64,000 nucleotides of DNA from Candidatus Cloacimonadota bacterium (GCA_963667145.1 OY762943.1:1236251-1300250); one strand, 5' to 3'; positions 19,564-36,726 are shown, counted from the stretch's first letter. Numbers and translations are program-made. Notes: generated by a model from the letters alone, not told the origin.

Positions 19564-20361
19564 TTGCGAGTAAAAATTACTTTTAGTTCTAATAGAAATT
19601 TTTTTGTCCCTTTCAACTACAAATACGAGATTTCTGCCCTCGTCTACAAGCTAATTGCCACAGCTTCCCAAGATTATGCCACCTTTTTACATGAAAAAGG
19701 TTTTGAATTTGATTTCTTAAGAAAATTCAAACTTTTCACTTTCTCCGATCTAAATTTTATTCCATTTAAAATTGATAAGCTAAAAGGTGGATTTGGCGAA
19801 ATTGAAAAAGTTGAGTTAATTTTTTCCACATTGATTCCCAAAAGTTTTGAAAATTTTATTTTAGGGATTTTTAAAAATCAGAATATTTCACTTGGTTTTG
19901 GTGCAGGCAGAAAAATAGACTTCTTTGCAGAAAATGTGGAAACTTTACCAGAGATAACTTTTGAAAATGAACTTAAATTCAAGTGTCTTTCGCCGATAGT
20001 AGTAACTACTAAAAAAGAAATAAACGGCGATTTGAAATTGCATTTTGTGGAATATAATACTCCCGAAGAAAAGAAACAATTTTCCGAAAACATTCATAAA
20101 AATCTTCTCTATAAATATGCAGCTTTTCATGGTAAAGAATACGGAAATAAAGATTATAATTTTGAATTTCATTTTGATGAGGAATATATCAAAAAACGCA
20201 AAGGGAAAATTTATAAGCTCCTGCGTTACAAAAACACCAATATCAAAGGGATTTATGTTTCGGGTGTTGTAAAAGCTCCCAAAGAGTTGTTAGAGATTTT
20301 GTATTATGCAGGGGTTGGAGAGAAGAATAGCGGGGGATTTGGATGTGTGGAGGAAATTTGA
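19564..20361 (+). CDS. cas6: Cas6 (CRISPR repeat endoribonuclease), type I-B
   Basis: TTG start 8 nt after aaggag. The C-terminal glycine-rich loop GVGEKNSGGFGCV is typical of Cas6. It is the first gene of the cas operon. Confidence 0.75.
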   Translation: MRVKITFSSNRNFFVPFNYKYEISALVYKLIATASQDYATFLHEKGFEFDFLRKFKLFTFSDLNFIPFKIDKLKGGFGEIEKVELIFSTLIPKSFENFILGIFKNQNISLGFGAGRKIDFFAENVETLPEITFENELKFKCLSPIVVTTKKEINGDLKLHFVEYNTPEEKKQFSENIHKNLLYKYAAFHGKEYGNKDYNFEFHFDEEYIKKRKGKIYKLLRYKNTNIKGIYVSGVVKAPKELLEILYYAGVGEKNSGGFGCVEEI

Positions 20362-20370
20362 GAGGTAAGA

Positions 20371-22122
20371 ATGATTTATGATATTTTAGAAATTTTTAGA
20401 AAAGAGTATGAAAAAGATGAGAAAGGTGACAACCTTGTTTTGGGAAGTTATGAGTTAAAAGAAGGTTTATATGTTAAAATAAATAAGAATTATAAAATAG
20501 AATATTTTATGGTTAAAAAGAAAAACAGGGAACTTTTTTTTACTGATATTGATGAGAATTTAAATTATAGTGCCTATAAATGGTTTAAAGAGCGAGATTA
20601 TTATAGTTGCTATTTGAATTCAAACAAAGCATTTTACGACAAAAAAATACATAGTATAAATTATTTTTCTTTATTTGTTAAACTTGATAGTTTTATTTCA
20701 GCTGAACCAAAAAAGATTTTAAAGTGTGAAGTTATAGATAAGCATTATTATAATCTTTGTAATTATAAAAAATTTCAGAAAAAGCAAGAAATTGAAATTC
20801 TTCAAGATTTCCAAAAATATTTAACAAACAGAGAAAGAAGAAAAGATATAATCAAAAAATATAAATTTTTAAGAGAAAATTTGGATTGTATTGTTACAAT
20901 AGCTAAAGAAAATAAAATAAAAAATTATGTTAAAGTGTTTTTTGACGAAAGTGTTGAAAAATATAGAGAGGAAAGTAAAATTTACTATTCTATAAAAATA
21001 TTCAATGATATCAATTATTGTAAAACAATTGAAGGTAAAAATTTTGGTTTGTCAAACTCAAATATGGGATTAAACACCAAAAAACCATATTTGGAACATA
21101 AAACAAAATTTAATACAGTGCCATTTTTAATAGAAAAAAATGATGCCTTAATTTTGAAAATATTTTTTGATTGGTTAAAACTTCAATCGTATAAAGATAA
21201 AGAAAATAAGCCAAAAGACAGATATTTAGATGATAATTTTTTTATGCAAAAACATTCTTCCAATGATGAAGCTGAAATTACAGATTTTGATTATGTTCCC
21301 ACAAGAAAAAATGAATTAGAAAAACCTATTTTGATAAAAAATTATCTTTGGCTTAAGGAAAACAAAACATTAATTCAAGACGATGAAATTGGGAAATTGA
21401 GCAGATTAGAAGCTATAGTTGACGATATTTTTTATAATCATCAATTGATAAATAACTATTACGGTGAAGTATGGAAAAAACTTGATAATTCTTTTGCAAA
21501 TTTTATTTATATTACAAGAGATGCGATGATAGCTTATTTTAGAAAATATGATGAAAAAGGTTTTTTTGATGTAATTAAGAAATACGGCTCAAAACTTATA
21601 ATTGAACATATGAAAAAAGATAGATTATTAAAAGCGGGCAAAGCTTTGAATTTAAAATTATCTTTATTGGAATATAAAGGAGAAAAAATTATGAATATTA
21701 AGCAAATGCAGGAAAAAATTATTGAAAAATTAATGACGTCAAATTACGATAATTTGAATGTAGAAGAGTTTTTTTATCTTTGTGGGCAAATAGCCAGATA
21801 TTTAATTAGTCAAAGTGAAGCTTTCGAGAAAAAAGGAGATATGTTAGATCCGTTTTTAAAAGCAAAAAATGTGGAAAAATTGAAAGAAGTTATTAAAATT
21901 ATATATCAAAAATATAATCATAAAATATTATTGGAATTGATGAAAACTAATAAGGAAGGGATTGTTTACAAAATTTATTTAAAAAAATTTGGTAATGCAA
22001 TAAGTTTAGTTATGGCTTATAATGATGATTTTAATGTTAAAGATAATTATGATAGCCTTCTTATAGGAGCATTGAGTGAAAACATTTTTTATATGAAAAA
22101 TGAAGAAATAAAAGGAGAATGA
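20371..22122 (+). CDS. cas8b: Cas8b (Csh1) large subunit, type I-B
   Basis: A 583-aa Lys/Asn-rich protein sitting between cas6 and cas7 in the canonical I-B order. No other family signature. GC is very low, about 25%. Confidence 0.65.
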
Positions 22123-23063
22123 TTATGAATAGAGTTTATGGTGTTATCGGAATTGGTGTAAAGATGGCAAATTGGAATGCAGATTTTACCGGCAGACCAA
22201 AATCAACCAGCAATGGTGATATTTATGGAAGTGACAAAGCTTTAAAATATCCTATGAAAAAAATGTGGGAAAATGAGGGTCAGAAAATTCTTTTCATGAA
22301 AAGTTGGAAAGAGGAAGTAAAAGAAGGGAAAACAAAAATAAAGCCTAAAAATCTTGGAGAAAGATATGAAGAATTATTTCCCAATTCAGAAAAAAATATT
22401 TTACCAAAAATAGTTTTAAAAAATTTATTTGCTTGTATAGATGTAAAAAATTTTGGAGCTACTTTTCCGGAAAAGGGTCAAAACTTTTCTATCACAGGTG
22501 CTGTGCAAATAGGGCAAGGATTTAATAAATTCGCTGATATCTTTGTTGAAGTTCAAGATATTTTATCTCCTTTTCAGGATTCCAAGGCGGAAGATAAAGG
22601 TAAAGAAGGCAATCAGGCAACTTTGGGGACAAAAATCACAGCTGATGAAGCTCATTATTTTTACGGATTTTCTATAAATCCGAGGAATTATGATGAATAT
22701 AAAAATATAATTGGTGAAGATTTTGAAGGATATACAGAAAATGATTACAAAGAATTTAAAAAGGTGGCTTTAGTTTCTGCTACTTCATTTGCCACAAATT
22801 CCAAATTTGGAGCAAATAATGAGTTTGCTTTATTTGTAGAAACCAAAGAAAATTCAAAATATTATTTACCTGATTTATCTGAATACATTGAATATCAAGA
22901 CAATACAATTGATTTGAGTAAAATTGATGGTATTTTGAAAAACGATGAAATAAAAAGTATAGAAGTATATTATAATCCTTCAACAAGCAAACTCAAAAAA
23001 TTGGAAGCTGAAGCAAAATATTTTAATATAATTACAATGAAGCAAGAAAATGGAAGCAATTAG
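22119..23063 (+). CDS. cas7: Cas7 (Csh2) backbone subunit, type I-B
   Basis: The N-terminus [39 protein letters not shown] is the conserved Cas7/Csh2 signature. It overlaps cas8b by 4 bp. Confidence 0.85.
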
Positions 23064-23865
23064 TTTTATATTAAGCGGAAAGACTGCTCATTTAAAAAAA
23101 CCTGATGTAAATTCTTATGCTTATTTTACTTATAACAATATTCATAAACCGGCATTATTGGGATTATTGGGAGCGGTTTTAGGGCTTAAAGGATATACAC
23201 AACTTTTTGATGAAGCGGAAGAATTGCGAAAAAAGACTTTAAACACTAAAGGAAAAGAAAAAAAGGAATTGAATTTAGCAGTGGATAAAGTTAAACAAAA
23301 ATTTCCTGAATATTATGAAAAATTGCAAAATTTGAAAATTTCAATCAAACCGCTTTCTAAAAATGGATATTTTACTAAAAAAATTCAAGTTTTTAACAAT
23401 TCTGTTGGTTATGCCTCCCAAGAACAAGGTGGAAATTTAATCGTTCGTGAGCAATGGTTGGAAAATCCTAAGTGGCAGATAATGATACTCGATGATGATT
23501 CAATTGAAAGGAATTTATTTAATAAATTGAAAGATTATTTCTTAAATTTAAAAGCAGAATTTATTCCTTATCTTGGAAAGAACGATCATCCTGCAAAAAT
23601 TTCAAAGTCTGAAATAATTGTCTTAGATAAAATTACAGATACTTTTTTAGGTAAAATTTCTTCTTTATTTTTAGATAACTCTTTTAGTTACAGTTCATTT
23701 GGTAAAAGTTTATTTTGGCATAAAGAGTTTTTACCTATGTCTTTAAAGAAAGGATTTCATATTTACGAAGCCGAACAATTTGTTTTTACAAATGCAAATG
23801 TAAATTCAAATAGCAATCTTGAAATATTATTTTCTTATAATAATGAAAATTATTTCTTTTTTTAG
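23050..23865 (+). CDS. cas5: Cas5 (Cas5h), type I-B
   Basis: The Cas5 N-terminal region ([25 protein letters not shown]...[16 protein letters not shown]) includes the glycine-rich segment. Its position is right for Cas5. Confidence 0.8.
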
Positions 23866-36125: not shown

Positions 36126-36181
36126 TATGAGAGATTTATAAAAAAATACGACCGTCCAGAATTTGATAACGTCTCAAAGTT

Positions 36182-36671
36182 GGTGTAAATTTAAAAAGTA
36201 AAAAATGGTCACTTTTGCTCTTATGTTACAAAAAGTTAACACGAGGAGGCAAAAATGACCAACAACCATGATAAAAAACTTGAAGAATTTACAAATTTTG
36301 TCAAGGATGAAACGAGTAATAATTTAACAAAAATTTTGAAAACAGCTGTACATCAACTGTTTCAAGCAGAATTAGAATCATATTTGAATGCTAAAAAATA
36401 TGAGAGAAATCAGGAGCGAACAACTTATAGAAGTGGATTTAGAACTAGAAAACTTGCCACTAGTTTAGACGATGAGAAAAAATCATTTAGGATTTTTTCA
36501 TAGTTGTGAAAGTTGTAATCTTCTAATTGGAGCAATTTTAGTTCAGCAAAATGAGGATTGGCTTGAAGGACTAACCTATATGAGTATAATAAAAAAAGAG
36601 CCAACTTACGGAAAAAACTCAAGTTAGCAGAAAATTTTTAGAAATAATTAAAACATGAGAGAATTTACACC
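36182..36671 (+). mobile_element. Putative internally deleted IS256-family remnant bounded by 10-bp inverted repeats GGTGTAAATT / AATTTACACC
   Basis: The terminal inverted 10-mers are at 36182-36191 and 36662-36671. It encloses an 82-codon ORF resembling the N-terminus of IS256-family transposases. Confidence 0.35.
36255..36503 (+). pseudogene. Truncated IS256-family (mutator-type) transposase, N-terminal fragment only
   Basis: LTKILKTAVHQLFQAELESYLNAKKYERNQERTTYRSGFRTRKL parallels the IS256 Tnp N-terminus (...NQLMENQRTEYIQAKEYERTENRQSQRNGYYER...). It stops after 82 aa and the catalytic DDE region is absent. Confidence 0.6.
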
Positions 36672-36696
36672 ACAAATGAGACTTGACTCCGATTTC

Positions 36697-36726
36697 ATTT
36701 AAATTAGACTACTGTAGAATTGAAAC
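36697..36726 (+). repeat. Orphan CRISPR repeat 570 bp beyond the array end
   Basis: An exact 30-bp copy of the array repeat, separated from the last array repeat by the IS256-like remnant. Confidence 0.9.

Follow-up and report, generated by a model that had tools for sequence, protein, structure and literature searches.

Subtype I-B is the commonest CRISPR (clusters of regularly interspaced, short palindromic repeats) subtype, and what follows concerns a normal member of this well-known family: a complete, apparently intact type I-B CRISPR-Cas locus with an array of about 100 spacers, in the chromosome of a Candidatus Cloacimonadota bacterium. It lies within a 64,000-nucleotide stretch of DNA (GCA_963667145.1 OY762943.1:1236251-1300250), the whole of which is called the window and supplies the coordinates used here. 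Among described systems, that of Haloferax volcanii is of the same Hmari/Csh1 lineage and can be likened to the window's by description: its Cas6b makes CRISPR RNAs (crRNAs) with 8-nt handles, and its Cas11b, which arises from translation starting internally and in frame, plays an important part in interference (PMC11899642, PMC6546412); it differs in having an archaeal, high-GC host and several shorter arrays. Thermotoga maritima I-B1, which has been reconstituted and is also likened by description, is a type I-B Cascade with Cas3, shares the AAC at the end of the repeat, and produces its Cas11 from an internal start in cas8b (PMC13199841); its Cas8b is another variant, its host is a thermophile, and its YYD protospacer-adjacent motif (PAM) was determined experimentally. 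The I-B Cascade of Synechocystis sp. PCC 6714, whose structure has been solved (8H67; PMC11096372), is made of the same subunits, Cas8b-Cas7-Cas5-Cas6-Cas11b, and its Cas11b is the C-terminus of Cas8b, but its large subunit, a Myxan-type one, has no detectable sequence similarity to the window's Cas8b (a phmmer search of the PDB with the latter returns nothing at E <= 1).

The comparison with the Csh1-type (Hmari-lineage) I-B loci of Sulfurovum, Sulfuricurvum, Halarcobacter anaerophilus and Marinimicrobia was made on Cas8b, which is 48-59% identical over its full length. Homologs in that range of identity number in the hundreds, are named Csh1 by their sources, and belong for the most part to Campylobacterota (Sulfurovum, Sulfuricurvum, Halarcobacter), Marinimicrobia and Deltaproteobacteria contributing some. 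These Csh1-type loci share with the window's Cas8b an internal methionine and a K-G-E motif that are discussed below, and they reside in low-GC genomes, matching the composition of the window's cassette. The window differs from them in its host, a member of the Cloacimonadota, and in that its 28% GC cassette is foreign to a 41% GC genome. Two related Cloacimonadota sequences are drawn on throughout: L006 (OY762940.1, 818501-840093) and L007 (ENA ERZ21831251 ctg12618l, a 93.6-kb metagenome contig).

The cas genes of the window form a compact block on the + strand (19564-28114) in the order cas6-cas8b-cas7-cas5-cas3-cas4-cas1-cas2, eight full-length open reading frames (ORFs) separated by -14 to +28 nt:

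19564-20361, + strand: cas6b, pre-crRNA endoribonuclease, 265 amino acids, with a TTG start after AAGGAG
20371-22122, + strand: cas8b (Csh1 family), large subunit and I-B signature gene, 583 amino acids
22119-23063, + strand: cas7b, Cascade backbone, 314 amino acids (Pfam Cas_Cas7, 1.9e-35; PADLOC Cas7b, 1.8e-39)
23050-23865, + strand: cas5b, 271 amino acids (TIGR02592, type I-B Cas5b, 141.7 bits against a cut-off of 97; PADLOC Cas5b, 8e-42)
23875-26322, + strand: cas3, HD nuclease and superfamily 2 helicase fused, 815 amino acids
26351-26848, + strand: cas4, RecB-like nuclease of the adaptation module, 165 amino acids
26858-27847, + strand: cas1b integrase, 329 amino acids (TIGR03641, type I-B Cas1b, 431.8 bits against a cut-off of 304.1; PADLOC Cas1b, 7e-141)
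27851-28114, + strand: cas2, 87 amino acids (Pfam CRISPR_Cas2, 4.4e-22; PADLOC Cas2b, 1.8e-31; TIGR01573, 43 bits against a cut-off of 24.5)

For each of the eight proteins the I-B model ranks top among the CRISPR-aware models of PADLOC, with near end-to-end coverage of the PADLOC-DB profiles. Cas8b aligns through residues 1-579 with positions 1-556 of its 559-position profile (6e-115), and Cas3 through residues 9-807 with positions 7-793 of 797 (Cas3b, 3e-246); Cas6 matches Cas6b over its full length (6.4e-64) and Cas4 matches Cas4b (1.5e-67). The I-B-specific NCBIfam models for Cas1b and Cas5b are exceeded at their curated cut-offs, and so are the generic ones: Cas6 (TIGR01877, 93 bits against 58.7), the helicase core (TIGR01587) and HD domain (TIGR01596) of Cas3, Cas4 (TIGR00372, 82 bits against 65) and Cas2. 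Pfam adds Cas_Cas6_C and Cas6_I-A for Cas6, which can also be aligned to the solved Cas6 structures 5yi6 and 3pkm, and Cas_Cas4 (8.5e-59) for Cas4. Catalytic motifs are in place: YLHDLGK at residue 77 (HD) and GSGKT at residue 273 (Walker A) of Cas3; four cysteines, at residues 18, 154, 157 and 163, of Cas4; the G-rich loop GEKNSGGFG of Cas6. An earlier note on this DNA had placed the locus at 19564-36726, had listed the cas genes in the order given above, and had called the system type I-B, naming beforehand a re-typing with CRISPR-aware hidden Markov models as a possible refutation. The two boundaries are exact (cas6 starts at 19564 and the last repeat ends at 36726), the gene order is as claimed, and that re-typing (PADLOC) gave I-B for all eight proteins.

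The locus has no separate cas11 gene, and its place may be taken by a product hidden within cas8b:

21691-22122, + strand: candidate cas11b, from an in-frame internal start at Met441 of cas8b; a predicted helical small subunit of 143 amino acids

Codon 441 of cas8b is ATG, with AAGGAG just upstream. Met441 is invariant in 23 of 23 Cas8b homologs, where it stands within a K-G-E-x-x-M motif whose Gly-Glu codons make up the Shine-Dalgarno-like sequence; the L006 cas8b retains AAAGGAGAAAAAATTATG exactly. The C-terminal domain of Cas8b is Cas11-like in a predicted model. Since Cas11b is known to be translated internally from cas8b in other I-B systems (PMC11096372; PMC13199841; PMC11899642), and since the methionine is invariant and the Shine-Dalgarno-like sequence conserved, a 143-residue Cas11b is likely to be the ninth product of the locus.

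The cas genes are followed by a leader and by a 30-nt repeat, ATTTAAATTAGACTACTGTAGAATTGAAAC, which recurs 101 times between 28311 and 36726, always on the + strand:

28115-28310, + strand: putative leader, between cas2 and repeat 1, 196 bp, 29% GC
28311-31637, + strand: array half nearest the leader, comprising repeats and spacers 1-50 together with the opening 26 nt of repeat 51
32859-36125, + strand: array half farther from the leader, comprising the closing 19 nt of repeat 51 along with spacers 51-99 and repeats 52-100
36126-36159, + strand: spacer 100, about 34 nt with an approximate 3' boundary; it separates repeat 100 from the left inverted repeat of an IS256-type remnant
36697-36726, + strand: repeat 101, the terminal one, a perfect copy, 571 bp past repeat 100

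Regularity on this scale is far beyond chance: 98 of the 101 repeats are perfect, two carry a single substitution (A7G in repeat 59, A29G in repeat 95) and one, repeat 51, is split; spacers of 34-39 nt make up 99 regular ones. Beyond repeat 101 there is neither a degenerate repeat nor trailer homology with L007. The leader shares the blocks CATCGACGACAAAA and AATAAGCATTTGT with that of L006 and contains a weak promoter-like site (28223-28251). The 3' end of the repeat (ATTGAAAC), the conserved AT-rich leader beside cas2, and the restriction of the variant repeats 59 and 95 to the distal half agree in predicting transcription of the array along the + strand from the cas2 side. Repeat RNA has no stable structure (-1.3 kcal/mol, z -0.1), no Rfam CRISPR-DR family matches the repeat at E <= 0.1, and its 28-nt core has 0 matches in the JGI metagenomes. 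The earlier note would have counted failure of the repeats to fold against the subtype assignment. That criterion is not valid: I-A and I-B repeats are normally unstructured, and Cas6b nonetheless generates the canonical 8-nt 5' handle (PMC5965381), so that an unstructured repeat is no strike against I-B.

Two insertion sequence (IS)-derived elements interrupt the array:

31638-32858, - strand (transposase): IS481-like element inside repeat 51, 1221 bp
36160-36696, no strand assigned: internally deleted remnant of an IS256/Mutator-family element, abutting repeat 101, about 535 bp

The first of these leaves 26 nt of repeat 51 on its left, up to 31637; on its right the repeat picks up again at its 12th base, and the consequent 15-bp target-site duplication, ACTACTGTAGAATTG, can be read on both sides (31623-31637 and 32859-32873). 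A duplication of 15 bp is, we take it, within the range of the IS481 family. The terminal inverted repeats are imperfect and about 30 bp long (TGG...AAAAGTATCCACCC). IS481 is the top NCBIfam model for the transposase (8.6e-43, 146.9 bits), and Pfam recognizes HTH_28/32 and rve_3 domains; the score lies below the curated cut-off of 224, and the element is for that reason called "IS481-like". The same 1,539,614-bp contig carries at least seven further copies of at least 90% identity. The transposase ORF (31624-32712, - strand) has no stop codon inside the element; its minus-strand end (31624-31640) runs on to a TAG in the flanking CRISPR repeat. The seven copies that were read share ...GGYFYCIPP and then diverge (TILQ, IYTTNET, NKISSLG, NFSVVLD, SRLSFFF..., RKYELLC, TIFYFLN...): the frame reads through the end of the element, so that each insertion site contributes a different C-terminal tail. 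Specific targeting of CRISPR repeats by this element was considered and rejected, because the read-through tails of the six other copies all differ, pointing to different flanks.

The second element accounts, with the spacer of about 34 nt, for the 571-bp gap between repeats 100 and 101. It retains an 82-residue N-terminal transposase fragment (36255-36503; Pfam Transposase_mut, 1.1e-8) and mutually inverted ends at about 36160-36191 and 36662-36695, which are 94.6% and 86% identical to those of a full copy in L007 (transposase of at least 402 amino acids); no clear target duplication accompanies it. Being internally deleted, it is taken to be non-autonomous.

The 50 older spacers lie beyond the IS481-like insertion, which may make their expression weaker or uncouple it. 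Each repeat happens to hold a -35-like TTGAAA and a -10-like TAGAAT hexamer, and sigma-70-like sites between 28311 and 36125 number 69, against 38.8 +/- 7.1 in shuffled sequences; such predicted promoters inside the array could feed transcription 3' of the insertion.

The spacers themselves are redundant: 83 of the 99 are unique and 16 (16%) are exact copies of others. More than half a kilobase has been copied as a single block:

29691-30886, + strand: tandem duplication of nine repeat-spacer units, a 598-bp block with 0 mismatches, in which spacers 22-30 equal spacers 31-39

Scattered duplicates are found in the distal half (74=84, 75=86, 76=92=96, 82=99, 90=94, 91=95), and spacers 11 and 40 are one base apart. 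When repeats recombine or replication slips between them, duplications of blocks and of single spacers are a known result (PMC8047081).

These observations change the picture of the array that the earlier note had drawn, in which it was "exceptionally long", with about 100 spacers in about 7.8 kb of repeat/spacer DNA. The two insertions had been missed. Because the 1221-bp element splits repeat 51, the 7815 bp between 28311 and 36125 hold only 6579 bp of repeat-spacer DNA; and while the count of 99 regular spacers stands, only 83 of them are distinct. Bacterial arrays typically have fewer than 50 spacers, but larger ones with over 100 exist, the longest on record having 587 (PMC8047081; PMC7145573): about 100 spacers in a 1.5-Mb genome is notable rather than exceptional. 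Long arrays are usual for this cassette, since the related L006 locus also has at least 59 repeats.

What do the spacers recognize? The whole array was compared by blastn (word size 11, E cut-off of 1) with GenBank phages (50,697 records) and PLSDB (72,556 plasmids); this yielded no credible protospacer, only weak partial matches at E 0.05-0.7. Exact 26-27-nt cores of eight spacers (S1, S11/40, S26, S76, S10, S25, S53, S43) gave 0 matches in IMG/VR, and a wobble-degenerate pattern of S26 gave 0 in the JGI metagenomes. Self-targets in the window outside the array were rejected as chance-level: the best are exact over 17 and 16 nt and extend to only 23 of 37 and 21 of 36. The "history of invader exposure" that had been read into the array is accordingly not documented by a protospacer in any collection searched, and the "recorded mobilome", although real as a record, is currently unreadable, no targets having been identified. 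With no protospacer found, no PAM can be derived; by analogy with T. maritima I-B1, where a YYD PAM accompanies a repeat that likewise ends in AAC, a pyrimidine-rich PAM would be a reasonable guess.

The composition of the locus sets it apart from its surroundings: GC content is 27.7% in the cas operon and 41.4-41.6% on either side of the locus. GC at third codon positions is 0.18-0.28 from cas6 to cas3, 0.37-0.41 in cas4, cas1 and cas2, and 0.42-0.54 in flanking genes. Low GC at both levels, together with a cloud of Cas8b homologs that is rich in Campylobacterota, points to horizontal acquisition of the cassette from a low-GC donor pool; the effector (cas6-cas3, 19564-26322) and adaptation (26351-28114) modules, which differ in third-position GC and, to judge by Cas8b (about 75%) and Cas1 (at least 90%), in identity to L006, may have had different histories or be under different constraints. 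Flanking proteins (a PnrA-like binding protein and an ATP-binding cassette (ABC) ATPase) fall into clusters of at least 90% identity with proteins of OY762940.1, a 1.59-Mb Candidatus Cloacimonadota metagenome-assembled genome, which makes the host a close relative of that organism.

It is the L006 locus that OY762940.1 carries. It has the same gene order as the window and 78-82% nucleotide identity from 11 bp before cas6 through the leader, a repeat differing only at bases 1 and 30, a Cas1 at least 90% identical and a Cas8b about 75% identical. It differs from the window in its upstream flank, which is unrelated, and has zero spacers in common with it. About 1.3 kb of IS-like DNA (L006 8743-10053) splits its cas8b, leaving a Cas8b called at a truncated 488 amino acids. 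(The insert contains two ORFs, of 128 and 281 amino acids, has TGGACTC...GAGTCCA as inverted ends and resembles an IS3-type element.)

L007, from a sister strain with the same genes upstream of cas6, is 94.7% identical in nucleotide sequence to window 11506-19666. At L007 10693-10890, the counterpart of window 19506-19666, a cas6 stub some 100 nt long is joined directly to one degenerate repeat (ATTTAAATTAGACTACTATAGAATTAAAAT), past which lies unrelated DNA with a tRNA-synthetase-like gene. The junction is a deletion scar from which operon and array have been removed; since L007 carries it, the locus was at the same site in the common ancestor of L007 and the window strain. Patchy presence of CRISPR-Cas in Cloacimonadota has been noted previously (bioRxiv 10.1101/2021.10.08.463351).

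How are these properties best explained? We are confident that the window encodes canonical type I-B (Cas8b/Csh1-family) adaptive immunity, residing in a 1.54-Mb chromosome in the form of a low-GC cassette that was probably acquired horizontally and whose array was later remodelled. That the proteins constitute something else (subtype I-A, I-C, I-D or I-G, or a CRISPR-associated transposon (CAST) of subtype I-B that guides transposition) is exceedingly improbable. Cas7 has weak matches to I-C models too, Cas8b has no match to a Pfam or NCBIfam model, and its predicted model is structurally like Cas8c and Cas11, with I-C Cas8c chains as its closest matches; but I-B is the best model throughout, the margin being large in the case of Cas8b, Cas3, Cas1 and Cas4, and separate cas6 and cas4 genes beside a fused HD-helicase cas3 fit I-B rather than I-C or I-D, the former being without cas6 and the latter having Cas10d. 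I-B CASTs have no cas3 and adjoin tnsA/B/C/tniQ; that candidate was rejected, cas3 being intact here and the flanking ORFs encoding ABC transporters, a glycosyltransferase and surface proteins. We also think it highly unlikely that the duplications, the 598-bp block and the scattered distal spacers alike, are artefacts of assembly and the true array shorter. The block is copied without a mismatch, and short-read assemblies of the locus break at the first repeat, which marks it as hard to assemble. The contig is, however, a single 1.54-Mb sequence, and block and single-spacer duplications are well documented in natural arrays (PMC8047081); unique spacers stand between the distal duplicates, and the variant repeat 95 accompanies one of the copies, which is unlike simple collapse or expansion and makes an artefactual origin unlikely for these in particular.

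Does the locus still work? Several observations speak against the explanation that we favor. The promoter in the leader is only a weak match to consensus; the split repeat 51 and the decayed element at the trailer are evidence of tolerance to insertions; none of the collections searched yielded a protospacer for any spacer, which leaves interference and recent adaptation undocumented; and two relatives have lost function, L006 through interruption of cas8b and L007 through deletion of the locus, which could signify relaxed selection. The two insertions in the array, at least eight copies of the IS481-like element in a 1.54-Mb genome, the split cas8b of L006, an L007 locus reduced to its stub and degenerate repeat, and the want of a spacer match to a known virus or plasmid in the collections searched might be put together in a different way: the locus would be a decaying relic, type I-B in structure, no longer functional or under selection, eroded by resident IS elements and on its way to being lost. 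We judge this to be unlikely. All eight cas ORFs of the window are full length with motifs intact; the perfection of 98 of 101 repeats argues for recent homogeneity and turnover; each insertion disrupts at most one unit of the array, and the leader and first 50 spacers are untouched; and an identical Cas1 protein is present in several metagenome runs (SRR34447523 and SRR34447543-46), so that a population carrying the locus is extant. A bolder proposition would see the three related Cloacimonadota genomes as successive stages in the erosion of CRISPR-Cas by the lineage's own IS elements in a streamlined genome of about 1.5 Mb: from an intact operon whose array is split by an IS (window), by way of a cas8b interrupted by one (L006), to a cas6 stub and one repeat (L007), as the stages may have been. 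We find it doubtful; were it true, the IS481-like insertion would already have uncoupled the 50 older spacers from the leader, and only half of the memory would be expressed.

The favored explanation, canonical I-B immunity, implies a mode of action that is borrowed from the established I-B pathway. Transcription of the array would start from the leader. Cas6b would cleave within each unstructured repeat, 8 nt from the 3' end, generating crRNAs with a 5' AUUGAAAC handle, and these would assemble with Cas8b, Cas7, Cas5, Cas6 and several copies of Cas11b (from the Met441 internal start) into Cascade. Cascade would then locate complementary DNA flanked by a PAM and recruit the HD-helicase Cas3 for its degradation, and Cas1-Cas2, with Cas4, would place new spacers at the leader-proximal repeat. 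Later remodelling of the array involved: 1) recombination or replication slippage between repeats, generating duplicated spacer blocks; 2) insertion of the resident multi-copy IS481-like element into repeat 51; 3) insertion of an IS256-type element, now decayed, into a site before the last repeat.

The neighborhood of the locus is not a defence island: PADLOC matches in the flanks are to generic ABC-ATPases or methyltransferases. There is no tRNA gene in the window, and no integrase adjoins the CRISPR-Cas locus. Directly downstream of the array, on the - strand (37064-43756), lies the gene of a giant repetitive surface-type protein of 2230 amino acids with CarboxypepD_reg, SdrD_B, SpaA and DUF285 repeats; a second such giant (5431-10503, - strand; 1690 amino acids) has GLUG motifs and a 339-bp tandem repeat at 8015-9060. 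A gene for a methyltransferase-like protein of 243 amino acids (window 10743-11474) is located directly upstream of a nucleoside ABC transporter; in L007 its counterpart (17665-18330, 96.4% identity) is about 7 kb downstream of the deletion scar, indicating local rearrangement between the strains. Away from the cas locus, a 360-residue ORF (52092-53174, + strand) encodes a caspase-like Peptidase_C14 domain (Pfam, 7.9e-14) with a weak PADLOC "caspase" match.

Relative to the earlier description of this locus, the refinements are a probable hidden Cas11b start, two IS-derived interruptions, redundancy of 16% among the spacers, a cassette that was probably acquired horizontally and has proved unstable in relatives, and the absence of identifiable targets in the collections searched. 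The conceptual gain is small: long arrays, duplicated spacer blocks, IS elements in arrays and patchy presence among relatives have all been documented. Still, intact, disrupted and deleted versions in three relatives provide a small example of the lability of CRISPR-Cas, and the complete I-B cassette is open to reconstitution. Cloacimonadota are abundant in anaerobic digesters and landfills. For these uncultured bacteria, the 83 distinct spacers, along with a repeat and leader that are now defined, could provide the link to viruses and plasmids that have so far gone unsampled.

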